A stretch of DNA of 64,000 bases from Eledone cirrhosa (lineage: Eukaryota). Every line of letters begins with the position of its first letter. The first letter of the stretch is position 1. Below, in pieces: positions 1,075 to 64,000 of this stretch. Below the pieces are notes generated by a model, which saw only the letters and a list, made by a program, of their open reading frames with translations, had not been told where the DNA came from and did not search any database. The stretch lies in contig OZ024749.1 in assembly GCA_964016885.1 (NCBI GenBank), positions 29,760,001 to 29,824,000 on the forward strand, in the 5' to 3' direction. Position numbers and translations under genes: made by a program.

Positions 1075-1111
<37 letters not shown>

Positions 1112-1207: not shown

Positions 1208-1238
<31 letters not shown>

Positions 1239-1510: not shown

Positions 1511-1545
<35 letters not shown>

Positions 1546-5684: not shown

Positions 5685-5973
5685 TGTGATATGGATGATG
5701 GACAATTGAAAGAGCTCAACTAAATGTATATGGGTTTACAAAATCATACATATATATATGTATATACATAAATATAAAATTAATACACACATACAGTACA
5801 AAAATACGAATATTTCCGTGAAAATAGGAGCAAAATTATGTAGATAAATCTACCAAGAGTTTACGGTAGTGTCCAATCCGTATGAAGAACTCAATGTATT
5901 CCGGATATCATGGAAAGAAGAGATGTAATGAAAATCCAATTTCGGTGAAAGATAAACGGTATACAGAGTCAAG

Positions 5974-6951
5974 ATAAAATATTAAACAAATAATGAACAA
6001 ACAATTCCTTATATTAAACAAAAAAAGTTCACTATTTAACGATCGTTTCTAGGGCATATATGTGCTATAATTGGTATGCATATTTAACAGATCTATGTAC
6101 AAAATTATACAAAATTATACAAATTATCAAGATTAAATATACATACCTAACTCATATATACGCCGTCTTCAGAAATAATGAAGTATATTTATTGATAATA
6201 ATAACAATTCAAAATATCAGTTCAAAATTGACCAATGAAAACACAAAGGGTTAAAAAGCAGTTTGGTGTGTGTATATACATGTAAAACCCTACACACATT
6301 TTACAATAATGTGTGTATAATATGTATGTGCATACTAAAAAGATGGATGCAAATAAAAAATTTCAAGGTTAATATCTCTGTAAGCTTAATGCGCTGATAA
6401 GATACGCAATGATACTTATGTAGTCAAGCATATAAATATATTTTTTTCATACTCACACATATCAGTATAATCACACATACATGTGCGTATATATATAAAT
6501 ATACACATAACCACGAACACACAAACACACACACACCCCCCACTCACATTTATATATGTGGATATAAAATCATAAGCAAATAGAAATTAAGTCACTCACA
6601 TAAACACACTGGTACACACATTTCAAGATCAAGATACAGAAATTAGGTGGGAGGGGGGGGGAGGGGTCAGTATTAGGTTGTCAGACCAGACAGCCTAATA
6701 TAAATGTATCTATAAATTATGAAAAATAAAAAAATAAAAACAATAAAATATATTACATATAATATAATATACATACGCATACAGATATACATACACATAC
6801 ATACATGTACGCGCACATAGAGATATCTACACATACATACATACACACATACCTATACTGTCATACACACACATACATTTACACGAACATACATATACAC
6901 ATATAAAAAGATAAAAATACGGACACACACACGCGCAACACATACACACAT

Positions 6952-6998
<47 letters not shown>

Positions 6999-7109
6999 TA
7001 TACACACACACACATAGACTCATATATATATACATACACATACATATACTTATACATAAACATATATATCCCACACTCATACCACCATGAAGACACAAAC
7101 AAAACATCC

Positions 7110-7159
<50 letters not shown>

Positions 7160-7251
7160 ATACACACACGTACACATATATGCATATATACATACATATA
7201 TACACACATACACATATATATATATACACACACACATAAAATACAGACATG

Positions 7252-7288
<37 letters not shown>

Positions 7289-7384
7289 TTCATTACCCTT
7301 ATATATACTCACAGTATATATACATACACAACCTCACTTATACACATATACACATAAGTTATATTACAATAATAATAAAGAATA

Positions 7385-7415
<31 letters not shown>

Positions 7416-7689
7416 TATACACACATATACACATATACATACATACACATACATATACATACATACATACACATACATACATACACCTAAATATAAACAT
7501 ATATAAATACACACATACGAATAAAGACATATATTCACACATAGACACCTATATACACATATACATATATATATATATATATATATATCTATATATATCT
7601 ATATACAGACACATACACATACATACACATATATATATATATATACACATATATACACACGCACACACATACAGACACACATACACACT

Positions 7690-7724
<35 letters not shown>

Positions 7725-10084: not shown

Positions 10085-10409
10085 GAATTTTTTAGCAATA
10101 TTATCCTTAAGAATTTTTTAGCAATATTATCCTTAAAAATTTTTTAGCAATATTATCCTTAAGAATTTTTAGTATTATTGACCTAATTAATATACATTTT
10201 GGAAATATATTTATTATTTGGTTTTAGCTTTAAAAAATTTTTTAGCAATATTATCCTTAAGAATTTTTTAGCAATATTATCCTTAAGAATTTTTTAGCAA
10301 TATTATCCTTAAAAATTTTTTAGCAATATTATCCTTAAGAATTTTTAGTATTATTGACCTAATTAATATACATTTTGGAAATATATTTATTATTTGGTTT
10401 TAGCTTTAA
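10058..10409. repeat. Inversion-junction repeat: 8 copies of a 26-mer arranged as a ~176-bp duplicated block
   Basis: (A/G)AATTTTTTAGCAATATTATCCTTAA x4, then ~70 bp of the inverted arm, then x4 again, then the full inverted arm. Confidence 0.85.
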
Positions 10410-11742
10410 TCAACCTAAAACTTTAATTTTAATTTTAATTTGCTTAAAATTAGTATCCTTGTACAGACGAATTGCAGAATTTCATGTAATCATAGAATGG
10501 GAGGTGTTTTTGGATATATACCTAGTTAATATATTCTGTGCAAATTTTTTGAAAAAGATATGTATATCTATATGTATATGTATATGTGTGTATTGTATGT
10601 GTATCTGTATGTATATTTATGTGACTATATATGTATGTATGTGTGTGTATATATATGTATATATATATATATATATGTGTATGTATATGTATATGTATGT
10701 GTATGTGTATGTATATGTATGTGTATGCGTATTAATTTTGATTTTTATTTGCATATAATTATATTATGCTATTGATGAAATACAATATCTGCTTTATGTA
10801 TTGTATACCTAATTAACATATACTAATTAACATATACTATTGAAATAAATATATAATTTTTAACTTAGTTAACATATAATTTATATGCTACTACCGATGT
10901 AATACTTTATTTTATTTTTATTTGGGTTTCTTTTCCCTATTATTAACTTTAATTTAGTTATAATGTAATTAATAATCTACTACTGTTTGACTTCATAATT
11001 CTGCTTCAAATATTATAAACCTAACTAATTTACACCTTGGAAATCAATATGTTGACTATCTTTGGTTTAGTTGACATATGATTAATGGTATACTTTTTTA
11101 TTTTGTGATGCATAGATTTCGTATTTCCTAGCATTGAAAATATGTAAGAACATACATTGAATTAAGATATGGAAAATATTATAGGTTTCTTGAAACATAT
11201 ATTTACTTTGATCCCCTTCTCCAAACCCCCCCCTTTTCCCCCATACTATTATCATCTGTTTTTGTAAGTGTATATGTATAAATATATGGTTAGATGGGTG
11301 TCTATATAGTTTTTTTTGGTATTTATTTCTAGATATAAAAATACATATATGAGCATGTAAATATGAATGTAAGATTGAGTGTGTATATATGATTGTACAT
11401 ACATATGTATGTATATGTATGTATATATATGTATTATATATGTACGTGTATGTGAATGTGTGGTATATATATGTGTAGGTATTTGTATATATGTGTGTGT
11501 ATGCGTATGCTTGTATATAGGAATATATATGTGTGTATATATGTATATATGTATATGCGTGTTTGCATGTATGTGTATATGGGTTCTGTATATATTTGTA
11601 TGTCTCTCTATTTATATGTTTATCTTCGTATCTATGTGATATATGTGTGTGTGTGTGCATGTATGCATATGTATGTGTTTGTGTGTGTTTGTATGTGTGT
11701 GTGTGTATATATATGTATGTATTTGCGCACACTCACATACAC

Positions 11743-11777
<35 letters not shown>

Positions 11778-12049
11778 AGTGTGTATGTGTGTCTGTATGT
11801 GTGTGCGTGTGTATATATGTGTATATATATATATATATGTGTATGTATGTGTATGTGTCTGTATATAGATATATATAGATATATATATATATATATATAT
11901 GTATATGTGTATATAGGTGTCTATGTGTGAATATATGTCTTTATTCGTATGTGTGTATTTATATATGTTTATATTTAGGTGTATGTATGTATGTGTATGT
12001 ATGTATGTATATGTATGTGTATGTATGTATATGTGTATATGTGTGTATA

Positions 12050-12080
<31 letters not shown>

Positions 12081-12176
12081 TATTCTTTATTATTATTGTA
12101 ATATAACTTATGTGTATATGTGTATAAGTGAGGTTGTGTATGTATATATACTGTGAGTATATATAAGGGTAATGAA

Positions 12177-12213
<37 letters not shown>

Positions 12214-12305
12214 CATGTCTGTATTTTATGTGTGTGTGTATATATATATATGTGTATGTGTGTATATATGTATGTATATATGCATATATGTGTACGTGTG
12301 TGTAT

Positions 12306-12355
<50 letters not shown>

Positions 12356-12466
12356 GGATGTTTTGTTTGTGTCTTCATGGTGGTATGAGTGTGGGATATA
12401 TATGTTTATGTATAAGTATATGTATGTGTATGTATATATATATGAGTCTATGTGTGTGTGTGTATA

Positions 12467-12515
<49 letters not shown>

Positions 12516-13484
12516 ATGTGTGTATGTGTTGCGCGTGTGTGTGTCCGTATTTTTATCTTTTTATATGTGTATATGTATGTTCGTGTAAATGTATGTGTGT
12601 GTATGACAGTATAGGTATGTGTGTATGTATGTATGTGTAGATATCTCTATGTGCGCGTACATGTATGTATGTGTATGTATATCTGTATGCGTATGTATAT
12701 TATATTATATGTAATATATTTTATTGTTTTTATTTTTTTATTTTTCATAATTTATAGATACATTTATATTAGGCTGTCTGGTCTGACAACCTAATACTGA
12801 CCCCTCCCCCCCCCTCCCACCTAATTTCTGTATCTTGATCTTGAAATGTGTGTACCAGTGTGTTTATGTGAGTGACTTAATTTCTATTTGCTTATGATTT
12901 TATATCCACATATATAAATGTGAGTGGGGGGTGTGTGTGTGTTTGTGTGTTCGTGGTTATGTGTATATTTATATATATACGCACATGTATGTGTGATTAT
13001 ACTGATATGTGTGAGTATGAAAAAAATATATTTATATGCTTGACTACATAAGTATCATTGCGTATCTTATCAGCGCATTAAGCTTACAGAGATATTAACC
13101 TTGAAATTTTTTATTTGCATCCATCTTTTTAGTATGCACATACATATTATACACACATTATTGTAAAATGTGTGTAGGGTTTTACATGTATATACACACA
13201 CCAAACTGCTTTTTAACCCTTTGTGTTTTCATTGGTCAATTTTGAACTGATATTTTGAATTGTTGTTATTATCAATAAATATACTTCATTATTTCTGAAG
13301 ACGGCGTATATATGAGTTAGGTATGTATATTTAATCTTGATAATTTGTATAATTTTGTATAATTTTGTACATAGATCTGTTAAATATGCATACCAATTAT
13401 AGCACATATATGCCCTAGAAACGATCGTTAAATAGTGAACTTTTTTTGTTTAATATAAGGAATTGTTTGTTCATTATTTGTTTA

Positions 13485-13491
<7 letters not shown>
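10337..13491 (+). repeat. Inverted pLTR of PLE-1 (~3.15 kb of 3' UTR)
   Basis: Reverse complement of ~5974-9130; the ORF track is mirrored. Confidence 0.88.
13285..13439 (+). ncRNA. Type I hammerhead ribozyme motif of PLE-1 (long stem II)
   Basis: Stem I TTCATTATTT/AAATAGTGAA, core CTGAAGA, stem II GGCGTATAT/ATATATGCC extended by GGTATGTATATTTAA/TTAAATATGCATACC, GAAA, palindromic stem III ACGATCGT, predicted cleavage after GUU (13429). Confidence 0.8.
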
Positions 13492-13570
<79 letters not shown>

Positions 13571-34732: not shown

Positions 34733-37054
34733 TCGATGGTCTTCCTTACGAATTATATCTAGCTATGCCGGACTTGTTCCCCGATCTCCTCGAGGCGGTC
34801 TACTGCAACTGGCAACAGAACGGGAGAATTCCCTGTACTGTGACCAAGGGCGTAGTCACGCTAGTGAGGAAGGACGAGAACAAGGGGGACGAAATAAGTA
34901 ACTTCAGGCCCATAACACTGCTAAATACAGAGTTACAGATTTTGGCCAAGGTGCTAGCAAAGAGGTTGGCGCTTGTCGTGGGCAACCTGGTGGGAGATGC
35001 GCAGACATGCGCTATCCCGTCCAGGTCCATCCATGACAACCTCCACCTCATGCGATACATCATAGAGAGGGTTGGGAACGAACCCGGCTTTGGTGGGGCT
35101 CTGATCAACTTGGATCAATCTAAGGCGTTCGATAGGGTCGACCATGGTTACCTGGATGCGGTGCTAGCGGCGGCAGGCTTCGGACCCGTTTTCAGGGGCT
35201 GGATCACTGCTATGCACAGCAGCCGCATCTGCTCTAGGGTCAAGGTGAACGGCTACCTCTCGGAGCCGTTCAAAATCGCGCGGTCCATCCGACAAGGGTG
35301 CCCTCTCTCCTCCCTTCTGTATGTGTTGACTCTCGAGCCACTACTGCGGAAGTTGGAGTTGTTGCAGGGCATCCCTTTGGAACCGGGATTGCGGAAAGCG
35401 GTGTCGGCCTACGCCGATGACGTGACAGTAATGGTGTCGACGGCCTCCGAAATCGAGGCGGTCGGCACCTTACTGGAGGAGTACGAAAAGTTCACAGGGG
35501 CTAAGCTGAACCGGGACAAGTCGATCGGTTTGCAACTCGGCACGTGGAGGGGCAGACCGATGCCCTCCGATAGCGTCGTCGGACGCTGGAGGGAGGGCCC
35601 GGTGAAGTTGCTCGGGGTCTGGTTCGGACCGGACCTCCAGGTGGAGAAAAACTGGGCGGAGGTTACGAACAGGGTGTTTGCACTGACCCAGAAGTGGGCC
35701 AGTTGCAAACTATCCCTGAAAGGTCGGGCGGAGGTGGCGAACACCTACATAGCGTCCGTCATCTACTACCGCCTGACCGTAGTGCCCTGCCCAAGGGAAA
35801 CCCTCACCAAGATGGAGCGCGCGCTCTTCCAATTCCTTTGGAAGAGGCGGGCTCCTATGGTGAGGAGATCCATCTGCTGTCAACACCCTTCGAAAGGAGG
35901 GCTGGGGATGCCGTGGCTAATGATGCGTAAACACGCATTAAGGCTACGGCACCTCTACGTATTCCTCACCGGACAACCGGTGTGGGCCTCGTTTGTGAGA
36001 CGAACCTTTCCCAGACTCGTCTCACTCACCGAGCTGCAATCCTGGGTCAAGCAAAGACCGAGAAAACTGGGCGCCTGACACACTGAGTGTGCCCAGGCGC
36101 TCACCGCCCTCTGGCAGGCGGATCCGGTTATCAGTGGAGACTCCACCGCAACATTCTATAGAGGGCTGGTACGCAGCAGGTGCGACGACGCCCTCGGAGA
36201 AGCCCTAGACATGGAGGAGGACGAACTGGCCAGCCTGTTCGGTAGGACATTCAGCCCGGGACCTATGGACAACTTCCAGAAGTCCCTGGCCTGGCAGTGC
36301 TACCGAGGGGCTTTACCCGTTCGAGAAAGGCTCTACAGACACGGGCGCCCGGGTAGGGACCCCGCCAAAAAGATCTGTCCCAGATGCGTGTGCGACGAGG
36401 AAACCGTTGCACACGCATTAGTACACTGCTCGGGCGTAGCCGATCTGTGGGGCTATGTCGAACAACTTCTGTCAAGGGTGGGACCGATCCGGTTGACCAC
36501 CGAGTCTATTGTAATGATCAAGCCGCCTCCCCCCTTCAAAGATGAAGCAGAGGCGGTGTTTCTGTGCGTAATAGCCATGGCGAAAGAGGTTGTATGGTGG
36601 ACGCGTCTGAAAGGACTGAGGTCGGGCACCTTTCTCTCTGGCCAACAACTGGTCCGTTTCTTCCGATATCATTTCGGAAGAAGGATCAGGATGGAGAGAG
36701 AGGTGCTGCACCCCAGCCGTTTCTATGAAAGATGGGTGAAAGTGGCGAGAATGGCCCGTGTGAATGGGCCTTCACTCTACATCAGACTATAGGTGAGGAA
36801 GATGAAAGACCAAGGGAGCACCCCTTCTCTGTGCTCCTGAGGAGAAGGGTTGCACACTTTTTTCGGGGGTGTGTGCGACCCCCCAAGGCACCTCCTCTCT
36901 ATTGAGGATTTTGTTAAAATTTTTATTTTTTGTTATATCTTATTTTATTTTTATATTTTGTTATTGCCTTCTCCTTATTGAGGACGCCTTTTTGTGTAAA
37001 CTCCCCCCTTTGTACTTGTCCCACTTTTGATGCCCTAGTGGCAAATAAAAGAAA
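34733..37054 (+). mobile_element. 5'-truncated Tx1/L1-clade LINE, subfamily B; ORF2 broken by TGG>TGA at 36076
   Basis: RT motifs DQSKAFD, QGCPLS, YADD; near-identical to 53606-55925; flanked by (TATC)n. Confidence 0.9.
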
Positions 37055-37066
37055 TATATCTATCTT

Positions 37067-40000
37067 GATAGAGTAAGACACGCTTCACATCGGCTCCGCT
37101 ATTCCATCGGGATTTACCCTTACTATTGTAAGTACCGGATAAATTTTTCAGTGCAACACATTTGGAACACTAACCCCTGTTATTTAGGGAAACATTTTTG
37201 CATTTACCCCCTTTTAAGGGGGTAAAATAAATATCTATTTTTGCCGAAAAATTTCTTTCTTGGCAGCATGGCGGAAAAGATGGCAGACATGTCTGCCATT
37301 AGCTCTGCCACGCCCCCCAAGTCTGAAGAACAAAAAATAATTACAACAAAATTAGACAATGAAACAAACAAAAAAATGAAAAAACAAATGTTAAGGAAAA
37401 TGAGCAAACGGAAAACAAACAAACAGAAAATAATACAAATAACAACAGGGCAACTTTCGCCCAGAAAACAAAACAATCCATTACATACACACCAATTGAC
37501 CTAACTGCCGCCAGAGAAAAACTGGCCGAAGCAAAGAAACACATTGTTTTGGGGGAGAACGGAATGTTTTCCATTAACTCCCCCCCCCAGAATTCAAGAA
37601 AGAAAGAACAGAGAACACAGTTCTCTTCAGAACTATACTGAACCAGACAAGAAAGCCAGCACAGCCCAGCCAAATGGAAATAGAGTTAGTCCTAAAAGAC
37701 TATATGAAGAATATTCTCTTCATACGAAAGGACCGACTCTATGGCAGCATTTCGGTCCTAACAAGAGACAAGGAAACGGCGGAGAAGCTTTCCCTAAGCC
37801 CACTCTCATCGACAACATACAGCTTCTATCCCTCCTACATGGGTAGAAGAACACAGAGAGTAAAAGTAAAAACAATGCTGCCCACAATGGACTTCTGGTG
37901 GGCTATTGCTGGCTTCATAGACATGGGCGAAGACACAATGCTGTCAATGGGGAAGGCAACTGGAGATGCGTTCCTGGGAATGGGCCTCGACATACTAGTC
38001 CAAATGAGGCCCGAAAGAATAGCACAAATCCCGGATCGCATCTGGCTGGATGACCTTACCCCAATAGACATAATTGTAGAGGGGAGAAGACCAGCATGCT
38101 ATTTATGCATGGAAAGGGGACACGTTAAGGCTAACTGCCCGAAACGTATCCCCCAAAAAGGACTATTGCCCACACCCACCACAAACAGTACACCAACACC
38201 ACCTACCTCCAAAAATACACTAATACCACACACAGCAAACAAAATACAGACACCACCAACCACAAACACAACACAAACATCACCACCACCAGCACCAAAC
38301 ACAAGCACGACACAAAAATCACCACCACCAACCACAACACAAACATCACCACCACCATCACCAACCACAAGCACGACACAAACATTACCACCACCACCAC
38401 AAAACCCATTCCAAACAAATAATAAAAAAAACAGTAACAAATCTACCCCTCCCGCAAAAAAAAAAAAACAACCACACAACACGTCCCTCCCACCTAGCGC
38501 TGAAGAGTTTCCCCCAACTTCTGAAGAAGAAGGAGGAGAAGCCTTCAGACAAGTTAAAAGAAAAAAAAGAAAACACACACCCAGCACACCACAAATAACC
38601 CACACACATACACCAACTCCAATCAAAAACACCCCACCCTCAACAAACAAAAATAAATCTGCGCCTCCCCTCTCCGAAACATTGACAGCATCACAAAAAA
38701 AAGACGTTGCAATACACATATATAAATAAAGAAAACAAAAAACTGGTTAAATTAATAAACAATAACCCTATGGTGCAGACCGAAGGGCCAAACTTTATCT
38801 CAACAGAGAACTTCACCCATTTAAAAATGATAAAGGTCCCTCTGGACCTTTATCGTTCCTTAAAAGAACAATTTAGACGGGACGTGAGCCCCCCCTGTTT
38901 AAAACCGTTGAATCGCGTCCTCTTGAAAGATTTCCCCATAACCGCCCCTCTCCCTGACACAACTCCAAATACCCCAACCCCACCACACACGTGTACCCCC
39001 ACACCACCACAAAACATCCCTCCACCCAACACACCTGATGCCATGGAAATTACGCAACCCGGAGAGGTAAGTGCTTTTCTTTCTTCACTTTCAACACCAA
39101 AATAGATCAATTGAGAGTTGGCTGTTTGAACGCACGTGGCCTGGGCTCAGCTTGGAAGCAAGCAAAGCTTCTAAGTGACCTCAGGTCACAAAGTATAGAT
39201 GTGATGGTTGTTTGCGAGAGTCGGATCAGCAGCGTGAGACAGCTGGCGCCCGCCTTCGATGACTTTGAGATGCACGCATCTCTCTGTCAACCCGGAGGCG
39301 GGGGGGGGGGGGGAGTTGCCGTACTGCTGGATAAACGTCTGACTCTCGACGTACAGATTGTTCACTCGGACCCGGGGGGTCGATTACTGGTGCTGGACGT
39401 CGGAGGCGGTGAAGGCGGGGCTTTCAGACTGGTCGGTCTTTATGCTCCCTTCGGGGCGGAAAGAGCCGACTTCTTCCAACGTCTGGAGACTTTTCTAGGA
39501 ACGTCGCGTTACCTGCTTTTAGTGGGGGACTGGAATGGAATCCTAGATGCGCGTTGGGACTATGCAGGGGCATGTCCCGATAGAGGGGGGTGTAGCAGCC
39601 TCAAGGGGTTACTCGATCGATTCGACCTGGTCGATAGATTTCGACTAGATTGTCCAACTGCGCCAACCTGGACCTGGGCAAACCGCAGTGGACAATCTAG
39701 ATCGTACCTAGATAGGTTTTTGGTTAGGAGTAAGGATAGGGACGTATTTAGTTGTCCAGAACTGATCATGGTTGGCTATTCAGATCACAAATTAGTGACC
39801 TGCGTGGTCAACCTTGATAGAACGCATAGACAGGGTCCCGGTTACTGGAAGATGAACTTGTCCTTACCGACAAAGAAAGATTACAGAAACCGGATTAGTA
39901 GCTTAGTTAAGATGCGGTTGACGGGAGCGATCGTCAACAGTAGGTGGTGGATATCTCTAAAGAGAGAGATTAGAGTAAGTTCGATAGGTTACAGTAAGGA

Positions 40001-42763
40001 ACTAGCGGCGAATAGAAATAGGAGGGAAAGGGAGTTAACAGATAAACTAGAAGAGGCGATTAGGAGCGGAGACGTAGCCAGAGTGTTAGCGACGAGAACG
40101 GCATTGAGCCAGTTCTTTGACGCGAAGCACGAAGGCTGCGTTGTCCGAAGTAAAATACGTGCTTTAGGAAACGAGGGGACCAAAGCTGTTAGCTGGGCCC
40201 GCGTGACAGAAGCCAAGAGTGGGATTAAATCCACCATTCGGTCTTTGCGAGACCAGGATGGACGGGTGATCCTTGAACCTGAGCGAATGTGCGAGACCTT
40301 TCAAAGGCACTTTGCTCGACTGTTCGGAGGTGGCGGGGGGCCGGACGGGGATGTGGACTTCGGTCCATACCTCGACGGTCTACCGCGTCTTTCGAGCGGC
40401 GAAGCGGAGTGCTGCGAAAGGCCAATCACAGCCACTGAAATCGGGGAAGCGCTCAGCCAATGCAGCAGACGCAAATCCCCGGGTCTCGATGGTCTACCAT
40501 ACGAACTTTATTTAGCTATGCCGGTCTTGTTCTCCGAACTCCTCGAGGCTGTCTATTGCAACTGGCAACAGAACGGGAGAATTCCCTGTTCTGTGACCAA
40601 GGGCGTGGTCACGCTAGTGAGGAAGGACGAGAGCAAGGGGGACGACTTAAGTAACTTTAGGCCCATAACTCTGCTGAATGCAGAGTTACAGATTTTGGCC
40701 AAGGTGTTGGCGAAGAGGTTGGCGCTTGTGGTGGGTGGTTTGGTGGGAGACGCGCAGACATGCGCTATCCCGTCCAGGTCCATTCACGACAACCTCCACC
40801 TCATGCGATACATCATAGAGAGGGTTGGCTACGAACCCGGCTTTGGTGGGGCCCTGATCAACTTGGATCAATCTAAGGCGTTCGATAGGGTCGACCATGG
40901 TTACCTGGATGCGGTGCTAGCGGCGGCGGGCTTCGGACCCGTTTTCAAGGGCTGGATTTCTGCCATGCACAGTGGCAACATCTACTCTAGGATTAAAGTA
41001 AACGGCTACCTCTCGGAGCCGTTTCAAATCACCCGATCCATCAGACAGGGGTGCCCCCTCTCCTCCCTTCTGTACGTATTGACTCTCGAGCCACTGCTGC
41101 GGAAGTTGGAGTTGCTGCGGGGCATACCCCTGGAACCGGGATTGCACAAAGCGGTCTCGGCCTATGCCGACGACGTAACAGTAATGGTGGCGGACGCCTC
41201 GGAAATCGGGGCGATCGCCACCCTACTGGAGGAATACGAAAGGCTGACGGGGGCTAAGCTGAACCAGGACAAGTCAGTCGGTTTGCAACTCGGAACGTGG
41301 AGGGGCAAACCGATGCCGTTAGACGGTGTCGTCGGGCGGTGGACGGAGGGCTCGGTGAAGCTGCTCGGGGTCTGGTTCGGACCGGACCTCCAGGTGGAGA
41401 AGAATTGGGGCGAGGTGACGAGCAGGGTGTTTGCGCTGACCCAGAAGTGGGCCAAGTGCAAACTATCACTGAAAGGTCGGGCGGAGGTGACGAACGCTTA
41501 CATAGCGTCCGTCATCTACTACCGCCTGACCGTCGTGCCTTGCCCCAAGGAAAAGCTCACCATCATGGAACGCATGCTCTTCCAGTTCCTCTGGAAGAAG
41601 CGGCCTCCCATGGTGAGGAGATCCATCTGCTGCCAGCACCCTTCGAAAGGAGGGCTGGGTATGCCGTGGCTGTTGATGCGTAGGCACGCATTGAGGCTAC
41701 GGCATCTACAGGTATTCCTCAACGGTCAGCCGGTGTGGGCCCCGTTTGTGAGGCGCGCCTTCCCACAGCTCGTCTCGCTCACCGAACTGCAATCCTGGGT
41801 GAAGCAAAGACCGAGAAAACTGGGCAACTGGCACACTGAGTGTGCCCAGGCGCTCACGGCTATCTGGCAAGCGGACCCGACTGTCAGTGGAGAATCCACC
41901 TCGACATTCTATAGAGGGTTGGTGGCTAGCAGGGGCGACGACACCCTTGGAGAGTCGCTAGGCATGGAGGAGGACGAACTGGCCAGCCTGTTCGGTAGAA
42001 CTTTCGGCCCGGGACCCATGGACAACTTCCAGAGGTCCCTAGCCTGGCAGTGTTACCGGGGGGCTCTGCCCGTTCGAGAAAAGCTCTACAGACACGGGCG
42101 CCCGGGCAGGGATCCCGCGAAAAAGATCTGTCCCAGATGCGTGCGCGACGAGGAAACCGTTGCGCATGCACTGGTACACTGCCCGGGCGTTGCCGATCTG
42201 TGGGGCTACGTCGAACGACTGCTGTCGCGTGTGGCGCCGATTCGATTAACCGCCGAGTCTGTGGTGAACATCAAGCCGCCTCCTCCCTTCAGAAATGAAG
42301 CAGAGGCGGTCTTTCTGTGCGTAATAGCCATGATGAAAGAGGTTGTGTGGTGGACGCGCCTGAAAGGTCTGAGGTCGGGTGACTTTCTCTCCGGCCATCA
42401 CCTGGTTTACTTCTTCCGATACCACTTCGGAAGAAGAATCAGGATGGAGAGAGAAGTGCTTGGTCCCAGACAGTTTTATGAAAGGTGGGTGAAAGAAGCG
42501 AGAATGGCCCATGTAAATGGGCCTTCTCTCTACATTGTTCTGTAGGTGAAGAAGTGAAGAGGAAAGGGGGAGCGCCTCCTCTCTGGGCTTCCCCCGCGAA
42601 AAGAGTTGCACACTTTTCGGGGGTATGTGCAATCCCCAACACGCCCCCTCCCTTTTGAGGACTTTTTATTGTTATATTATTATTGTTATTCCTTTTTTCT
42701 TTACTCGATTTATGTAAACTCCCCCACTGTGTAAATGTCCCCTTCTTTTGTGCCCTCGTGGCA
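37067..42763 (+). mobile_element. Near full-length Tx1-clade LINE, subfamily A; ORF1 frameshifted, 3' end runs into (TA)n
   Basis: 5' UTR near-identical to the one starting at 60208; ORF1 pieces 37268-39105 with CYLCMERGHVKANC; intact ORF2. Confidence 0.92.
39102..42545 (+). CDS. LINE ORF2: APE endonuclease + RT + C-terminal CCHC zinc finger; no AUG at the homologous start (ATA)
   Basis: LNARG, GDWN, YLDR, SDH (APE); KSPGLDG, FRPITLLN, KAFD, QGCPLS, YADD (RT); CPRC..ETVAHALVHC. PGYWKMN and RSIHDN are typical of Tx1/L1. Confidence 0.9.
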   Translation: MDQLRVGCLNARGLGSAWKQAKLLSDLRSQSIDVMVVCESRISSVRQLAPAFDDFEMHASLCQPGGGGGGGVAVLLDKRLTLDVQIVHSDPGGRLLVLDVGGGEGGAFRLVGLYAPFGAERADFFQRLETFLGTSRYLLLVGDWNGILDARWDYAGACPDRGGCSSLKGLLDRFDLVDRFRLDCPTAPTWTWANRSGQSRSYLDRFLVRSKDRDVFSCPELIMVGYSDHKLVTCVVNLDRTHRQGPGYWKMNLSLPTKKDYRNRISSLVKMRLTGAIVNSRWWISLKREIRVSSIGYSKELAANRNRRERELTDKLEEAIRSGDVARVLATRTALSQFFDAKHEGCVVRSKIRALGNEGTKAVSWARVTEAKSGIKSTIRSLRDQDGRVILEPERMCETFQRHFARLFGGGGGPDGDVDFGPYLDGLPRLSSGEAECCERPITATEIGEALSQCSRRKSPGLDGLPYELYLAMPVLFSELLEAVYCNWQQNGRIPCSVTKGVVTLVRKDESKGDDLSNFRPITLLNAELQILAKVLAKRLALVVGGLVGDAQTCAIPSRSIHDNLHLMRYIIERVGYEPGFGGALINLDQSKAFDRVDHGYLDAVLAAAGFGPVFKGWISAMHSGNIYSRIKVNGYLSEPFQITRSIRQGCPLSSLLYVLTLEPLLRKLELLRGIPLEPGLHKAVSAYADDVTVMVADASEIGAIATLLEEYERLTGAKLNQDKSVGLQLGTWRGKPMPLDGVVGRWTEGSVKLLGVWFGPDLQVEKNWGEVTSRVFALTQKWAKCKLSLKGRAEVTNAYIASVIYYRLTVVPCPKEKLTIMERMLFQFLWKKRPPMVRRSICCQHPSKGGLGMPWLLMRRHALRLRHLQVFLNGQPVWAPFVRRAFPQLVSLTELQSWVKQRPRKLGNWHTECAQALTAIWQADPTVSGESTSTFYRGLVASRGDDTLGESLGMEEDELASLFGRTFGPGPMDNFQRSLAWQCYRGALPVREKLYRHGRPGRDPAKKICPRCVRDEETVAHALVHCPGVADLWGYVERLLSRVAPIRLTAESVVNIKPPPPFRNEAEAVFLCVIAMMKEVVWWTRLKGLRSGDFLSGHHLVYFFRYHFGRRIRMEREVLGPRQFYERWVKEARMAHVNGPSLYIVL

Positions 42764-42790
42764 TATATATATATGTATATATATATATGC

Positions 42791-42821
<31 letters not shown>

Positions 42822-46985: not shown

Positions 46986-49132
<2,147 letters not shown>

Positions 49133-52062: not shown

Positions 52063-55000
52063 ACACCCACTCAACGACAAACACCCCAACCCCACAACAC
52101 ACCGATGCCCCTTCACTTCCACAAACCACCACCCCACCCAACAACCCATCCCCAACCAGCATGGAAATTGAGCGGCCCGTTTCCCGGGACGCAGAGAGGT
52201 AAGTGCCTTTTCTCTTTACCACCAACATGGCTGTGCTAAGAGTAGGGTGTCTAAATGCGCGTGGCCTGGGCTCGTCTTGGAAGCAAGCAATGCTTCTAAA
52301 TGACCTCAGGTCACAATCTATAAATGTGATGGTTATCTGCGAGGCCCGGATCAGCAGCATGCGACAGCTAGCCCCCACCTTTGACGACTTTGAGATGCAC
52401 GCATCTCTCTGTCAGCCCGGAGGTGGGGGTGGGGTTGTCGTTCTGCTGCAAAAACATATGGGCCTTGCAACACAGATAGTTCACTTGGACCCAGGGGGTC
52501 GACTGGTGGTGCTGGACCTTGGCAGTGGTGAAGGTAGAGCCCTTAGGCTGATAGCCGCATATGCCCCTTTTGGGACAGAGCGGCCCGACTTTTTCCAGCG
52601 TCTGGAGTCTTTTCTAGGGACGTCCCGTTCCCTGCTTTTAGTGGGGGATTGGAATGGTATCCTGGATGCACGTTGGGACTATGCAGGGGCATGTCCCGAT
52701 AGAGAGGGGTGCAACAGCCTCAAGGGGTTACTCGGCCGATTTGACCTGGCCGATAGATTTCGACTAGATTTTCCGACGGTGCCAACCTGGTCTTGGTCAA
52801 ATCGCAGCGGATCATCTAGATCGTACCTAGATAGATTTTTAGTTAGAAATAAGGACAGGGACTTTTTAAGTTGTCCAGAAATGCTCATGGTTGGCTATTC
52901 AGACCACAAGTTGGTGACCTGCATGGTCAACCTTGATAGAACGCATAGACAGGGCCCCGGTTACTGGAAGCTCAACTTGTCCTTGCCGGCAAGTAGAGCC
53001 TACAGGAATCGGATTAGTACTTTAGTTAAGGAACGGTTGACTGGAGCGATCGTCAACAGCAGGTGGTGGGTATCTCTAAAGAGAGAGATTAGAGTAGTCT
53101 CGATTGAATTTAGTAAGGTTCTAGCTGCGGATAGGAATAGGAAGGAAAGGGAGCTAATAGATAGAGTAGAAGAGGCAATTAGAAGCGGCGACGTGGCCAG
53201 AGTGCTAGCGTCGAGAACGGCTTTGAGCCAGTTTTTCGACGCGAAGCACGAAGGCTGCATTGTCCGAAGTAAAATACGTGCTCTAGGGAACGAGGGGGCC
53301 AAAGCTGTTAGCTGGGCCCGCGTGACAGAGGCCAACAGTGGAACTAAATCCACCATCGGGTCTTTGCGAGACCTGGATGGACGGGCGATTCTTGAGCCTA
53401 AGCAGATGTGTGAGGCCTTTCAAAGGCACTTTGCACGACTGTTCGGGAGGGGCGGGGAGCCGGTTGGAAACGTGGACTTCGGTCCATACCTCGACGGCCT
53501 GCCGCGCCTCTCGGACAGGGAGGCGAAGTCTTGCGAGGAGCCGATTTCGGCCGCTGAGATAGAGGACGTGCTGGGCCAATGCGGCAAACGCAAATCCCCG
53601 GGTCTCGATGGTCTTCCTTACGAATTATATCTAGCTATGCCGGACTTGTTCCCCGATCTCCTCGAGGCGGTCTACTGCAACTGGCAACAGAACGGGAGAA
53701 TTCCCTGTACTGTGACCAAAGGCGTAGTCACGCTAGTGAGGAAGGACGAGAACAAGGGGGACGAAATAAGTAACTTCAGGCCCATAACTCTGCTAAATAC
53801 AGAGTTACAGATTTTGACCAAGGTGCTAGCAAAGAGGTTGGCGCTTGTCGTGTGCAACCTGGTGGGAGATGCGCAGACATGCGCTATCCCGTCCAGGTCC
53901 ATCCATGACAACCTCCACCTCATGCGATACATCATAGAGAGGGTTGGGAACGAACCCGGCTTTGGTGGGGCTCTGATCAACTTGGATCAATCTAAGGCGT
54001 TCGATAGGGTCGACCATGGTTACCTGGATGCGGTGCTAGCGGCGGCAGGCTTCGGACCCGTTTTCAGGGGCTGGATCACTGCTATGCACAGCAGCCGCAT
54101 CTGCTCTAGGGTCAAGGTGAACGGCTACCTCTCGGAGCCGTTCAAAATCGCGCGGTCCATCCGACAAGGGTGCCCTCTCTCCTCCCTTCTGTATGTGTTG
54201 ACTCTCGAGCCACTACTTCGGAAGTTGGAGTTGTTGCAGGGCATCCCTTTGGAACCGGGATTGCGGAAAGCGGTGTCAGCCTACGCCGATGATGTGACAG
54301 TAATGGTGTCGACGGCCTCCGAAATCGAGGCGGTCGGCACCTTACTGGAGGAGTACGAAAAGTTCACAGGGGCTAAGCTGAACCGGGACAAGTCGATCGG
54401 TTTGCAACTCGGCACGTGGAGGGGCAGACCGATGCCCTCCGATGGCGTCGTCGGACGCTGGACGGAGGGCCCGGTGAAGTTGCTCGGGGTCTGGTTCGGA
54501 CCGGACCTCCAGGTGGAGAAAAACTGGGCGGAGGTTACGAACAGGGTGTTTGCACTGACCCAGAAGTGGGCCAGTTGCAAACTATCCCTGAAAGGTCGGG
54601 CGGAGGTGGCGAACACTTATATAGCGTCCGTCATCTACTACCGCCTGACCGTAGTGCCCTGCCCAAGGGAAACCCTCACCAAGATGGAGCGCGCGCTCTT
54701 CCAATTCCTTTGGAAGGGGCGGGCTCCTATGGTGAGGAGATCCATCTGCTGTCAACACCCTTCGAAAGGAGGGCTGGGGGTGCCGTGGCTAATGATGCGT
54801 AAACACGCATTAAGGCTACGGCACCTCTACGTATTCCTCACCGGACAACCGGTGTGGGCCTCGTTTGTGAGACGAACCTTTCCCAGACTCGTCTCACTCA
54901 CCGAGCTGCAATCCTGGGTCAAGCAAAGACCGAGAAAACTGGGCGCCTGGCACACTGAGTGTGCCCAGGCGCTCACCGCCCTCTGGCAGGCGGATCCGGT

Positions 55001-57754: not shown

Positions 57755-60158
57755 GATAGTAGGATGTACACAATTTAGCTGGTAAGTTTCTGTCAATTTA
57801 TTTACGAAAAAAACAGAAATTCTTGTTTAAAAAAACACATTGTTCTGTAGATTAACCCCCACGCTGAATTGTCAACTGGGTGACAATATCATTTTTCGCC
57901 CCCACAGGGGCAGAAATTTTATTTGAAAAACTGTTCAAAAATTTTTTAATATTTTGCCATTAACAATGGCTAGCGTACAAGGAACGCTAGCGAACGTTGA
58001 GAAAGAAAGAAGAAAGAAAGAAATAGATTTTAACGTTGCTACAAGCTCTGCCTGTATTGTTGTCACTATGGAAGTGAATAATGACAACAAAGTTTTGTTT
58101 CGCAAAGAAAGTGAAGTATGCAACAAAAACAACATTGAACCACACAGCTTACAACAGCCACAAAAAACAACAGAAAATAAAACAATTGACACAACTACAA
58201 ACGGAAAAACTGACAACCACAATAACAACAAACATAACTTTTGCAGAGATAGTCATAAACAAAATTGGCTACAAGGATATAGATATCACTAATGTAAGAC
58301 AAATGTTGTCTGAGGAGAAGAAATTCATCATTTTCGAACAGGGTGGATTTAAAATAAACTCACGCCCGGAAATCAGAATTGAAACCCTTAGAAGGACAGT
58401 AACCTTCAAAACTATTTCAAATGAAACAAAAAAACCCCAAAAAACCGGCATTCCTCAGTCAAGGGGAAATTGAAGCAACCTTGAAGGAGATATTGTCAAA
58501 CATAGACTTTATGCAGAGGGCCAAACAGTATGGGAGTATTACGGTGCTCCTCAAAAGCGAGGCCCTCGCACACAAATATTCCGTGACACCGATAATGTCA
58601 ACAAAAATACACCTTTTTCCCTACATACTTAGGAAAAAGGACTAAAAAAATTAAAATTACTAACATACCACCAAATATTAACACTTGGTGGATCCTGGCA
58701 GGATTCTTGGAAGAAGGAGAGGATGTTATCAACCAGACACACGTGGTCTGGTACGAATTTGGAGATTCTGTTTCAAATGAGGCCGGAGAGAATTTCCAAA
58801 ATACCCGAAAGAGTGCTGGTCGACAACAACAGCCATATCAACATTTCGACCAATGGAAGAAGACCACACTGCTTCCGATGCAACAGTACATCGCATTTAA
58901 AGGCCTCCTGCCCTCTACAGACAAACTCAAAAACACAATCCAAAAGCCACCACTACCACCACCACCACCACCACCACCACCACCATCACAACCACCACCA
59001 CCACAACAACAACAACAACAACACACAAAACAAGCAAACACACCAAAACAAACAGCCACTCAACCAACAACAGCAGACCCCCCACCGAAGAACACAGTCC
59101 CACACGAAAACGCCATCACCACACAGCATACCCCTACCGCAAACTCCTGATGACGAATCATCGTCAGACGAGGCTACTTCTTCATCCCCAAGTGAAGATG
59201 AAGGATAACCTCGAAAATCAAAACAACAAAAGAGAGGCACCGCAAAGCCACAAAAACACCAATCACCAACACCAACACACAACCACCGACACAAACAACA
59301 ACACAAACAACACCACAATCACCCCCACCCCTACCAGCAAAATAAACACCAACACCATCCCAAACACAAGCACCCACCATAAAAAGAAAACTCCCGGACG
59401 AACAACAAACTAAAACAACACAACAAAAACACAAACAATAATACCCATACATCAACACCAACAACAAGAATTTGATGGAGGACATCTCCAAAAACCCCAA
59501 GGTGAAGACGGAGGGTAAACATTTCGTTAAAGCAGAATCGTCTCCACACCTCAGACTGATAAGGATTTCCATGGAAACATTTAGTGGACTGAAAAGTGAA
59601 TTTTCGCAGGACGTGAGCAACCCCTGTCAAAAACCCATTAACCGCGTCCTATTAAAATGTTTCCCCACCCCAGCCAACACCCCCACCAGCACCCAAATGG
59701 AGATTGAATAACCCGATCTCCAGGAAACGAAAAGGTAAGTGCATCTTAGAGAAAAACAAAACAGAAACAGCACTAGTAGCCAAGATAGAGGAGGCGCTTA
59801 GGAGTGGCGATGCAGCTAGAGTGCTGGCAACGAGAACGGCACTGGACCAGTTCTTCGACGCGAAACACGAAGGCTGCGTGGTCAGAAGTAAATCACGTGT
59901 TCTAGGAAACGAGGGAGAAAAAGCTGTTAGCTGGGCCCGAGTGGCAGGGGCGAAAAGTGGCAACATGTCCACGATTCGGTCTTTGAAAGACCAAAACGGA
60001 TGCGTGCTACTTGACCCCAAGCGGATGTGAGTGACCTTTCAGCGGCACTTTGCGCAATTGTTCGAGCAGAGTGGCGGTGGGTCGAACGAGAGAATGGACT
60101 TCGGCATGTGTCTTTGTTTTGTCTCCTTTACTTGGGCACTCTTGTGGCAAATAAAGAA

Positions 60159-60159
<1 letters not shown>
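57755..60159 (+). mobile_element. Divergent Tx1 subfamily C: frameshifted ORF1, ~350-bp ORF2 remnant, short 3' end
   Basis: ORF1 pieces with QYGSITVLL, QMRPERI, CFRCNSTSHLKASC; ORF2 piece IEEALRSGDAARVLATR..; GTGGCAAATAAAGAAA-(TCTA)n end. Confidence 0.85.
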
Positions 60160-60207
<48 letters not shown>

Positions 60208-60408
60208 GATAGAGTAAGACACGCTTCGCATCGGCTCCGCTATTCCATCGGGATTTACCCTTACTATTGTAAGTACCGGATAAATTTTTTAGTGCAACAC
60301 ATTTGGAACACTAACCCCTGTTATTTAGGGAAACATTTTTGCATTTACCCCCTTTTTAGGGGGTAAAATAAATATCTATTTTTGCCGAAAAATTTCTTTC
60401 TTGGCAGC

Positions 60409-62244
60409 ATGGCGGAAAAGATGGCAGACATGTCTGCCATTAGCTCTGCCACGCCCCCCAAGTCTGAAGAACAAAAAATAATTACAACAAAATTAGACAT
60501 TGAAACAAACAAACAAAATGAAAAAACAAATGTTAAGGAAAATGAGCAAACAGAAAACAAACAAACAGAAAATAATACAAATAACGACAGGGCAACTTTC
60601 GCCCAGAAAACAAAGCAATCCATTACATACACACCAATTGACCTAACTGCCGCCAGAGAAAAACTGGCCGAAGCAAAGAAACATATTGTTTTGGGGGAGA
60701 ACGGAATGTTTTCCATTAACTCCCCCCCAGAATTCAAGAAAGCCAGAGCAGAAAACACAGTTATATACAGAACTATACTAAACCAGTCAAGAAAGCCAGC
60801 ACAGCCCAGCCAAATGGAAATAGAGTTAGTCCTAAAAGACTATATGAAGAATATTCTCTTCATACGAAAGGACCGACTCTATGGCAGCATTTCGGTCCTA
60901 ACAAGAGACAAAGAAACGGCGGTTCAGCTTTCCCTAAGCCCACTCTCGTCGACAACATATAGCTTCTATCCCTCCTACATGGGTAGAAGAACACAGAGGA
61001 TAAAAGTAAAAACAATGCTGCCCACAATGGACTTCTGGTGGGCTATTGCTGGCTTCATTGATATGGGCGAAGACACTATGCTGTCAATGGGGAAGGCAAC
61101 TGGAGATGCGTTCCTGGGAATGGGCCTCGACATACTAGTCCAAATGAGGCCCGAAAGAATAGCACAAATCCCGGATCGCATCTGGCTGGATGACCTTACC
61201 CCAATAGACATAATTGTAGAGGGGAGAAGACCAGCATGCTATTTATGCATGGAAAGGGGACACGTTAAGGCTAACTGCCCGAAACGTATCCCCCAAAAAG
61301 GACTATTGCCCACACCCACCACAAACAGTACACCAGCACCACCCACCTCCAAAAATACACTAATACCACACACAGCAAACAAAATACAGACACCACCAAC
61401 CACAAACACAACACAAACATCACCACCACCAGCACCAAACACAAGCACGACACAAAAATCACCACCACCAACCACAACACAAACATCACCACCACCATTA
61501 CCAACCACAAGCACGACACAAACATTACCACCACCACCACCACAAAACCCATTCCAAACAAATAATAAAAAAAACAGTAACAAATCTACCCCTCCCGCAA
61601 AAAAAAAACAACCACACAACACGTCCCTCCCACCTAGCGCTGAAGAGTTTCCCCCAACTTCTGAAGAAGAAGGAGGAGAAGCCTTCAGACAAGTTAAAAG
61701 AAAAAAAAGAAAACACACACCCAGCACACCACAAATAACCCACACACAAACACCAACTCCAATCAAAAACACCCAACCCTCAACAAACAAAAATAAATCT
61801 GCGCCTCCCCTCTCCGAAACATTGACAGCATCACAAAAAAAGACGTTGCAATACACATATATAAATAAAGAAAACAAAAAACTGGTTAAATTAATAAACA
61901 ATAACCCTATGGTGCAGACCGAAGGGCCAAACTTTATCTCAACAGAGAACTTCACCCATTTAAAAATGATAAAGGTCCCTCTGGACCTTTATCGTTCCTT
62001 AAAAGAACAATTTAGACGGGACGTGAGCCCCCCCTGTTTAAAACCGTTGAATCGCGTCCTCTTGAAAGATTTCCCCATAACCGCCCCTCTCCCTGACACA
62101 ACTCCAAATACCCCAACCCCACCACACACGTGTACCCCCACACCACCACAAAACATCCCTCCACCCAACACACCTGATGCCATGGAAATTACGCAACCCG
62201 GAGAGGTAAGTGCTTTTCTTTCTTCACTTTCAACACCAAAATAG
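60409..62244 (+). CDS. Intact LINE ORF1 (~611 aa; CCHC zinc knuckle, Pro/Thr-rich linker, basic tract)
   Basis: CYLCMERGHVKANC, KRKKRKH; uninterrupted from MAEKM. Confidence 0.88.
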   Translation: MAEKMADMSAISSATPPKSEEQKIITTKLDIETNKQNEKTNVKENEQTENKQTENNTNNDRATFAQKTKQSITYTPIDLTAAREKLAEAKKHIVLGENGMFSINSPPEFKKARAENTVIYRTILNQSRKPAQPSQMEIELVLKDYMKNILFIRKDRLYGSISVLTRDKETAVQLSLSPLSSTTYSFYPSYMGRRTQRIKVKTMLPTMDFWWAIAGFIDMGEDTMLSMGKATGDAFLGMGLDILVQMRPERIAQIPDRIWLDDLTPIDIIVEGRRPACYLCMERGHVKANCPKRIPQKGLLPTPTTNSTPAPPTSKNTLIPHTANKIQTPPTTNTTQTSPPPAPNTSTTQKSPPPTTTQTSPPPLPTTSTTQTLPPPPPQNPFQTNNKKNSNKSTPPAKKKQPHNTSLPPSAEEFPPTSEEEGGEAFRQVKRKKRKHTPSTPQITHTQTPTPIKNTQPSTNKNKSAPPLSETLTASQKKTLQYTYINKENKKLVKLINNNPMVQTEGPNFISTENFTHLKMIKVPLDLYRSLKEQFRRDVSPPCLKPLNRVLLKDFPITAPLPDTTPNTPTPPHTCTPTPPQNIPPPNTPDAMEITQPGEVSAFLSSLSTPK

Positions 62245-64000
62245 ATCAATTGAGAGTTGGCTGTTTGAACGCGCGTGGCCTGAGCTCAGCTTGGAAGCAA
62301 GCAAAGCTTCTAAGTGACCTCAGGTCACAAAGTATAGATGTGATGGTTGTTTGCGAGAGTCGGATCAGCAGCGTGAGACAGCTGGCGCCCGCCTTCGATG
62401 ACTTTGAGATGCACGCATCTCTCTGTCAACCCGGAGGCGGGGGGGGAGTTGCCGTACTGCTGGATAAACGTCTGACTCTCGACGTACAGATTGTTCACTC
62501 GGACCCGGGGGGTCGATTACTGGTGCTGGACGTCGGAGGCGGTGAAGGCGGGGCTTTCAGACTGGTCGGTCTTTATGCTCCCTTCGGGGCGGAGAGAGCC
62601 GACTTCTTCCAACGTCTGGAGACTTTTCTAGGAACGTCGCGTTCCCTGCTTTTAGTGGGGGACTGGAATGGAATCCTAGATGCGCGTTGGGACTATGCAG
62701 GGGCATGTCCCGATAGAGGGGGGTGTAGCAGCCTCAAGGGGTTACTCGATCGATTCGACCTGGTCGATAGATTTCGACTAGATTGTCCAACTGCGCCAAC
62801 CTGGACCTGGGCAAACCGCAGTGGACAATCTAGATCGTACCTAGATAGGTTTTTGGTTAGGAGTAAGGATAGGGACGTATTTAGTTGTCCAGAACTGATC
62901 ATGGTTGGCTATTCAGATCACAAATTAGTGACCTGCGTGGTCAACCTTGATAGAACGCATAGACAGGGACCCGGTTACTGGAAGATGAACTTGTCCTTAC
63001 CGACAAAGAAAGATTACAGAAACCGGATTAGTAGCTTAGTTAAGATGCGGTTGACGGGAGCGATCGTCAACAGTAGGTGGTGGATATCTCTAAAGAGAGA
63101 GATTAGAGTAAGTTCGATAGGTTACAGTAAGGAACTAGCGGCGAATAGAAATAGGAGGGAAAGGGAGTTAACAGATAAACTAGAAGAGGCGATTAGGAGC
63201 GGAGACGTAGCCAGAGTGTTAGCAACGAGAACGGCATTGAGCCAGTTCTTTGACGCGAAGCACGAAGGCTGCGTTGTCCGAAGTAAAATACGTGCTTTAG
63301 GAAACGAGGGGACCAAAGCTGTTAGCTGGGCCCGCGTGACAGAAGCCAAGAGTGGGATTAAATCCACCATTCGGTCTTTGCGAGACCAGGATGGACGGGT
63401 GATCCTTGAACCTGAGCGAATGTGCGAGACCTTTCAAAGGCACTTTGCTCGACTGTTCGGAGGTGGCGGGGGGCCGGACGGGGATGTGGACTTCGGTCCA
63501 TACCTCGACGGTCTACCGCGTCTTTCGAGCGGCGAAGCGGAGTGCTGCGAAGGGCCAATCACAGCCACTGAAATCGGGGAAGCGCTCAGCCAATGCAGCA
63601 GACGCAAATCCCCGGGTCTCGATGGTCTACCATACGAACTTTATTTAGCTATGCCGGTCTTGTTCTCCGAACTCCTCGAGGCTGTCTATTGCAACTGGCA
63701 ACAGAACGGGAGAATTCCCTGTTCTGTGACCAAGGGCGTGGTCACGCTAGTGAGGAAGGACGAGAGCAAGGGGGACGACTTAAGTAACTTTAGGCCCATA
63801 ACTCTGCTGAATGCAGAGTTACAGATTTTGGCCAAGGTGTTGGCGAAGAGGTTGGCGCTTGTGGTGGGTGGTTTGGTGGGAGACGCGCAGACATGCGCTA
63901 TCCCGTCCAGGTCCATTCACGACAACCTCCACCTCATGCGATACATCATAGAGAGGGTTGGCTACGAACCCGGCTTTGGTGGGGCCCTGATCAACTTGGA
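62241..64000 (+). CDS. LINE ORF2, 5' part (APE + start of RT), partial
   Basis: Matches ~39102-40868, with a 6-bp shorter poly-G tract; also starts ATA GAT CAA TTG. Confidence 0.85.
   Translation, partial: MDQLRVGCLNARGLSSAWKQAKLLSDLRSQSIDVMVVCESRISSVRQLAPAFDDFEMHASLCQPGGGGGVAVLLDKRLTLDVQIVHSDPGGRLLVLDVGGGEGGAFRLVGLYAPFGAERADFFQRLETFLGTSRSLLLVGDWNGILDARWDYAGACPDRGGCSSLKGLLDRFDLVDRFRLDCPTAPTWTWANRSGQSRSYLDRFLVRSKDRDVFSCPELIMVGYSDHKLVTCVVNLDRTHRQGPGYWKMNLSLPTKKDYRNRISSLVKMRLTGAIVNSRWWISLKREIRVSSIGYSKELAANRNRRERELTDKLEEAIRSGDVARVLATRTALSQFFDAKHEGCVVRSKIRALGNEGTKAVSWARVTEAKSGIKSTIRSLRDQDGRVILEPERMCETFQRHFARLFGGGGGPDGDVDFGPYLDGLPRLSSGEAECCEGPITATEIGEALSQCSRRKSPGLDGLPYELYLAMPVLFSELLEAVYCNWQQNGRIPCSVTKGVVTLVRKDESKGDDLSNFRPITLLNAELQILAKVLAKRLALVVGGLVGDAQTCAIPSRSIHDNLHLMRYIIERVGYEPGFGGALINL

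Follow-up and report, generated by a model that had tools for sequence, protein, structure and literature searches.

Human LINE-1 (L1) translates its second open reading frame by termination-reinitiation: ORF2 depends on the translation of ORF1 and is AUG-independent (according to the accessible parts of PMC11485995, PMC5009743 and PMC5972666; the coupling of LINE ORF2 and the AUG-independent L1 route are also reviewed in PMC4072516, likewise accessible in part). In human L1, this AUG independence concerns an element in which the AUG is naturally present, together with, as far as these partial texts go, a 63-nt spacer. In SART1, a LINE of Bombyx mori, the reading frames are coupled by a UAAUG motif in which the ORF1 stop overlaps the ORF2 start, with a predicted structure downstream (PMC3894237, PMC5972666 and PMC2881922, in the portions available). 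Finally, several viruses use stop-restart translation, at the AUGA of victoriviruses and caliciviruses and at M1/BM2 of influenza B: the accessible parts of the respective papers describe one-base AUGA overlaps (PMC3542737) and a tolerance of near-cognate, non-AUG restart codons, with AUA as a likely restart site in mutants (PMC5972666, PMC3035654).

We have analysed a stretch of 64,000 nt from Eledone cirrhosa (GCA_964016885.1, contig OZ024749.1, 29,760,001-29,824,000, forward strand; the window) that contains two copies of a LINE family, designated A, and pieces of its relatives B and C. As in SART1, the ORF1 stop of family A overlaps the putative ORF2 start, with a candidate hairpin predicted downstream, but this start is AUA rather than AUG and the geometry is of the AUGA rather than the UAAUG type; moreover, the overlap is recent, absent in the sister families and covered by a predicted long-range duplex. 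The L1-like layout of stop, spacer and AUG belongs to B and C, whereas family A is a whole expanding family without AUG. The viruses, in the accessible descriptions, start naturally at AUG, and caliciviruses and influenza B need an upstream UGGGA that was not found within the 150 nt upstream of the family A stop. By its target and ORF2 layout, family A resembles the microsatellite-targeting Tx1 elements: Kibi, Koshi and crocodilian Tx1 also have an APE-RT-zinc ORF2, a microsatellite target and tandem insertion. The target of family A is (TATC)n, however, and the accessible part of PMC4494074 mentions neither an AUG-less ORF2 nor a long-range duplex. Young L1-Tx1 families are reported from Octopus vulgaris (PMC13282606, partial text). 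Searches of the openly accessible literature, main texts only, listed neither a LINE ORF2 that naturally starts with AUA nor a duplex of this kind. Particular to family A are the preserved stepwise path to its junction and the place of this junction inside a predicted long-range duplex.

Results

Family A is a two-ORF LINE with (TATC)n as its target. It has the features of APE-type two-ORF LINEs of the L1 group, i. e. an ORF2 with APE followed by RT, an upstream ORF1 and no LTRs. Both PF03372 and PF00078 were above the Pfam cut-off for ORF2, and the best PDB matches of this protein are L1 endonuclease and ORF2p. The family is dispersed, with flanks that differ between copies; one 5'-truncated B copy is also present in the window. 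The features discussed here are compiled in Table 1.

Table 1. Features of the ORF1-ORF2 junction and its surroundings in the window
Feature	Positions	Strand	Basis
ORF1 of the first A copy, frameshifted there	37268..39105	+	
5' arm of the predicted duplex: end of ORF1, spacer and ORF2 codons 1-5; 54 pairs, -63.6 kcal/mol	39053..39117	+	
Site of the 14-nt deletion, between two CGGA repeats	39058..39066	+	
GAG-GTAAGT, consensus 5' splice donor (cut after GAG) at the ancestral ORF1 stop; top-scoring donor of the sense strand with an approximate human-type matrix	39064..39072	+	
A-AAA-UAG: P-site re-pairing at -1 possible, yet not an X-XXY-YYZ heptamer	39099..39105	+	
AUAG of the first A copy: AUA is ORF2 codon 1 and overlaps the ORF1 UAG	39102..39105	+	sequence
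ORF2 of family A, 1147 codons counted from ATA: APE endonuclease, reverse transcriptase, zf-RVT-like C-terminus	39102..42545	+	
UUGA: in-frame UUG (ORF2 codon 4; C at -3, A at +4) overlapping the next ORF1-frame stop; end of ORF1 in both intermediates	39111..39114	+	
Predicted hairpin, ORF2 nt 35-88; basal 10-pair stem kept in A, B and C, one compensatory pair	39136..39189	+	
3' arm of the predicted duplex: last ORF2 codons, ORF2 stop and start of the 3' UTR	42526..42598	+	
Family B junction: ORF1-frame TAA, 24-nt pyrimidine spacer, ATG in CCACCAACATGG	52200..52229	+	comparison
ORF1 of the second A copy, intact: 611 codons, CX2CX4HX4C knuckle, no Pfam match	60409..62244	+	
AUAG overlap of the second A copy	62241..62244	+	sequence

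In both A copies of the window, the codon that aligns without gaps to the ORF2 ATG of B (at 52227 in the window copy) is ATA (39102-39104 and 62241-62243), and it overlaps the TAG of ORF1 (39103-39105 and 62242-62244), just as the original prediction had stated. The start lies one base ahead of the stop, as in AUGA, and the AUA at 39102 has A at -3, G at +4, A at +5 and U at +6. The prediction had placed the TAG in the +1 frame; here the overlap stands, but the wording on the frame has to be adjusted, as, seen from ORF1, ORF2 occupies the -1 frame. This ORF2 frame has no stop from 39039 onwards, and its first ATG, at 39204 (codon 35), follows both the first endonuclease strand and the Asn aligned with the N-terminal 'LNING' Asn of the L1 endonuclease. 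A start at 39204 would thus cost the protein this strand and this residue, in line with the earlier claim that the motif would be lost. The 'LNING' Asn is required for L1 activity. Nothing on the endonuclease Asn was found in the accessible part of PMC4837594. The suspected independence of the two A copies was borne out as well: they differ at 40 of 3790 aligned sites and are preceded by different elements.

The original prediction had named a competing scenario, a family consensus with ATG and two copies derived from a single dead one. This scenario fails: a search of the 3.0-Gb genome for the junction as a 32-nt pattern gave 611 exact matches for ATA but zero for ATG. When any codon was allowed, 621 matches were obtained, and among the 100 listed 99 had ATA and one ACA. 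A looser pattern covering A and B found 2148 junctions; by hand count, the 100 listed comprise 31 of the A type (30 ATA, one ACA) and 69 of the B type (68 ATG, one AGG). Short-read contigs from two samples, which may include the source sample, cover the junction, and no other letter is listed at 39102-39105. ATA is the state of the whole family A, which has about 600 junction-bearing copies. Duplication of a dead copy or an assembly error is ruled out by the match counts, the differing flanks and the read contigs. TATC stands directly ahead of the 5' end in 22 of 30 A copies, a target preference as in the Tx1 clade; seven others did not show the 5' motif, and one ends in TATA after a TATC run. 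The ORF2 divergence of the young A copies is about 0.3-0.5% in a tree from which L052, L066 and L078 were left out for gaps or poor alignment.

The sister families show a different layout: In the B subfamilies and in C, ORF1 ends in AGG TAA, followed by a pyrimidine spacer and then by CCACCAAC ATG GC. Family C, which is about 62% identical to A over the first half of ORF2, has ATG in 21 of 26 copies and ATA in two, the remaining three being unaligned there. Depending on the subfamily, ORF2 is in frame 0, +1 or -1 relative to ORF1, and this variation suits reinitiation rather than a fixed frameshift. Family A itself has preserved older states. Genome-wide, we found eleven ACA copies, i. e. eight undeleted and two deleted ones and a young copy with a single back change; all eleven matches are, oddly, on the plus strand of contigs C1-C4, and the count may be incomplete. 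The eight undeleted copies retain a 14-nt stretch common to B, their ORF1 stop (AGG TAG) lies 36 nt before the ACA, and ORF2 is in the +1 frame. In the two others, which carry B-like bases at linked sites, the 14-nt deletion has put the ancestral ORF1 stop out of frame, so that ORF1 runs through the spacer and ends with a UGA that overlaps the in-frame UUG of ORF2 codon 4. The haplotypes are nested, from ACA undeleted via ACA deleted to AUA deleted, and the sites -308, -305 and +198 change in step. AUA is most likely derived from ACA, after the loss of the start codon; the order of states is read from two intermediate copies that may be recombinants, recombination being visible among the old copies, and in the ORF2 tree (without L052, L064, L066 and L078) basal support is weak and the ACA copy L060 falls among AUA copies. 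A direct change from AUG to AUA, as the original prediction had implied, is disfavoured by the ACA-bearing older and intermediate copies and is probably wrong: The older copies have ACA, and AUA came later together with the overlap. A single C>U exchange, from ACA to AUA, would have created both the near-cognate codon and the overlapping stop. From the copy numbers of the three states (8, 2 and about 610) it does not follow that the expansion was due to AUAG, since ORF1 and the 5' end changed too. Two tandem ACA copies (L062 and L063; contig C3, near 228.52-228.53 Mb) have near-identical ORF2 sequences, and L063 has a 5' end and an ORF1 of the young type; judged by its sequence, L063 is a chimera or a conversion product.

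Several comparisons indicate that ORF2 has been under purifying selection although it lacks an AUG. The AUA era is represented by the four earliest AUAG copies and nine young ones; of the 52 changes fixed between them, 28 are synonymous as compared to 15.7 expected from the observed mutation spectrum (p=2.5e-4), and no stops were fixed where 2.4 were expected; omega is about 0.37 in this comparison, and about 0.31-0.37 for the ORF2 of family A. When the changes were polarised by B, 23 of 40 were synonymous (p=3e-4). Moreover, the fixed changes between ten basal and nine young copies (33 synonymous, 23 missense, no stop) differ from the private changes in A copies (179 synonymous, 336 missense, 19 stop; Fisher p=3.5e-4). 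The selection tests were made without four poorly aligned rows (L052, L064, L066 and L078). In four of the nine young copies ORF2 is open over 1145-1147 codons, and in one more over 1111. Given the purifying selection within the AUA era, the AUG-less ORF2 of family A is very likely translated. Nevertheless, family A might make no ORF2 protein and depend for its mobility on the AUG-bearing B families, acting in trans: B junctions outnumber those of A about two to one (69 of the 100 listed) and include very young copies, the B copies of the window end in the same TATC repeats, and two ACA copies have one nonsense change in common. Such a dependence is hard to reconcile with the selection on ORF2 along the AUA lineage, which is also seen when B-like changes are excluded by polarising, and with the long open frames of the young copies; a family A devoid of its own ORF2 protein is therefore highly improbable, and pure trans-mobilisation unlikely. 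For the ACA era, no selection was detected among the shared changes of the eight copies (11 synonymous, 15 missense, one stop; p=0.53; L063 and L066 left out), and this result together with the common nonsense change suggests that some ACA copies spread in trans or by duplication.

The junction of family A is predicted to be part of a long-range RNA duplex that joins the two ends of ORF2. Among 262 windows along the element, the pairing of the junction with 42526-42598 ranks best (-72.2; median -35.5). The arms co-vary: In A, B and C the best partner of an arm is mostly that of its own family, with exceptions among decayed copies; for family C, the start-proximal part of the duplex did not favour the cognate pairing. 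In the predicted duplexes of B and C, the UGU ahead of the ORF2 stop is paired with the ACA of AAC-AUG, leaving the U of AUG bulged. In A, this place is occupied by ACA or AUA, and GAU CAA has its counterpart in compensatory changes of the final ORF2 codons. The duplex, which the original prediction had not noticed, explains part of the changed start context. The predicted energy is -18.5 with AUA and -20.4 with ACA, i. e. AUA is worse by 1.9 kcal/mol. A second predicted structure, the hairpin of ORF2 nt 35-88, has z values of -3.2 to -4.8, 97.9% of its stem cells are paired, and its compensatory pair is inherited by C. It is unremarkable among the windows of the element, as it is not among the eight best-folding of 189 A-element windows, and there is no excess of synonymous conservation within it (6 of 12 codons invariant versus 126 of 239 overall). 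Windows of ORF2 that fold more strongly are present at 39640-39720 in A (z -6.3) and at 54750-54860 in B (z -10.3).

The loss of the AUG also created a YAG (CAG in old and UAG in young copies), and it is conceivable that this serves as a splice acceptor and that ORF2 is made from a spliced RNA. A pyrimidine tract precedes the YAG in both states, and consensus donors are present at 39067 and in the 5' UTR. Neither donor, however, gives a join that is in frame or bears an AUG: The excision of 39 nt ends ORF1 two codons further on, and the 5' exon has no ATG. The pyrimidine tract, in turn, is accounted for by the duplex. Pattern searches for spliced genomic copies returned one point mutant, two indel mutants and no match, with patterns blind to joins in which the upstream exon ends in A-Y-N-N and to those with T at the first pattern place, and the contigs of the read runs (of unrecorded kind) show no joint at the junction. 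We regard a spliced ORF2 RNA as very unlikely. Irrespective of this question, A, B and C share a donor consensus, AG-GTAAGT, at the site of the ancestral ORF1 stop (39064-39072, 52196-52204 and the region 59734-59743; loci L083-L111). Old A copies have GTAGGT at this site and the youngest GTAAGT, a change that weakens the duplex by about 6 kcal/mol and restores the consensus. In the 5' UTR (37128-37267), young A copies have a GTAAGT, a branch-like CACTAAC motif and a pyrimidine tract with an AG right before the ORF1 ATG; an intron there, possible in the young copies, was discarded as the acceptor AG is absent from two old copies.

Discussion

How, then, might an ORF2 without AUG be translated? 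We propose, from the sequence comparisons, that translation of ORF2 probably begins when ribosomes, having terminated on the UAG, restart at the AUA one base back. In the ancestor, as in B and C, the restart would have taken place at an AUG located 23-40 nt downstream of the ORF1 stop. In family A this AUG would have been lost to ACA, the 14-nt deletion would then have shifted the ORF1 stop onto the in-frame UUG, and the single C>U would finally have provided a near-cognate AUA with the stop on top of it, so that no scanning would be needed, in a strong context for a non-AUG start. A ribosome finishing ORF1 may open the predicted duplex and thereby tie the initiation of ORF2 to the translation of ORF1. 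AUA has been retained in family A despite the better duplex pairing of ACA, which we count in favour of a restart on the AUA. Moreover, AUA can initiate with Met in vitro (PMC5666671, accessible part). The best context for non-AUG starts, A at -3, G at +4, A at +5 and U at +6 according to the accessible part of PMC9082881, equals that of the AUA at 39102; the role of the +5 base in the start context is debated (PMC4299517, partial text), and the match at +5 and +6 lends weak support, as GAU CAA co-varies with the 3' arm of the duplex and is already present in the ACA copies. A hairpin 14-16 nt downstream is reported to aid non-AUG starts (PMC9082881, same portion), and here the hairpin begins 34 nt past the AUA. 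The UGGGA core of the viral TURBS is absent within 150 nt upstream of the stop, where there is just UGGA, inside AUG GAA codons.

The original prediction had left the choice between non-AUG reinitiation and a -1 slip. Its common premise, a functional ORF2 without AUG, is upheld by the selection data; we favour reinitiation and keep the slip as the lesser option. In the latter case, ribosomes would slip by -1 at the UAG on A-AAA and read AUA as Ile, yielding an ORF1-ORF2 fusion protein. ORF2 indeed lies in the -1 frame and is open from 39039, tRNA-Lys could re-pair perfectly at -1, the ACA>AUA change supplied a stop for a pause right after the A-AAA, and a stable hairpin follows 30 nt downstream. 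On the other hand, the ORF1 frame contains no full X-XXY-YYZ heptamer from 38988 to 39102. Stimulators of -1 frameshifting are usually located 5-9 nt downstream; thus the hairpin is beyond the usual distance, and it is common to the AUG-bearing B and C. Finally, the A run is already present in the undeleted ACA copies, in which ORF2 is in the +1 frame, and it was thus not selected as a slip site. Taken together, we consider a slip unlikely, though it deserves more weight than splicing or mobilisation in trans.

Slightly less probable still, and likewise unlikely, is a restart after the ORF1 stop that uses the codon-4 UUG or, as has been proposed for human L1, disregards the codon, with the AUA being incidental. 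The UUG is found in all three states of family A and overlaps the ORF1 stop in the intermediates, the ACA copies reached at least seven loci without a near-cognate codon at position 1, and codons 2-3 track the RNA duplex rather than the Met-Ala of B and C. The context of the UUG is poor, however (C at -3 and A at +4), and a G at +4 is reported to be critical for non-AUG starts (PMC9082881, accessible part). AUA also spread despite its cost of 1.9 kcal/mol for the duplex, and the ACA-era copies are few and without measurable selection.

It is tempting to go one step further than reinitiation on the AUA. A more elaborate model, for which we would claim no more than that it is possible and somewhat doubtful, holds that after the loss of the AUG the signal was rebuilt by the ORF1 stop walking over near-cognate codons, first in UUGA and then in AUAG, inside an RNA clamp of 3.4-kb range that would be opened solely by the ribosome finishing ORF1. 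If this is true, the genome would contain natural mutants, in a dated series, of a gated, AUG-free restart mechanism. In any case, a naturally AUG-less family, its ORF2 under selection, has grown to about 600 junction copies, and the four junction designs that occur naturally on almost identical sequence (stop-spacer-AUG, stop-spacer-ACA, UUGA and AUAG) are directly comparable. Annotation pipelines should therefore not file ORF2s without ATG as dead.

The window contains further arrangements of these elements and of other sequences. Elements of the families A, B and C are inserted head to tail into each other's TATC tails (34733-37065, 37065-42800, 58240-60200 and 60206-64000), and tandem copies at a spacing of 5.6-5.8 kb are seen repeatedly in the genome. 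The family C copy at 58240-60200 contains ORF1 but lacks the ORF2 start and the endonuclease owing to an internal deletion, which begins right behind the donor-like GTAAGTGC; other C copies have no deletion at that place. The first part of the window (1-13500) consists of a duplication with 99.8% identity (1-3904 and 6178-10084) and an inverted third copy (10337-13493), and each copy contains a long minus-strand or mirrored ORF. Finally, an imperfect palindrome of 2 kb with arms that are 91% identical is located at 46986-49022.
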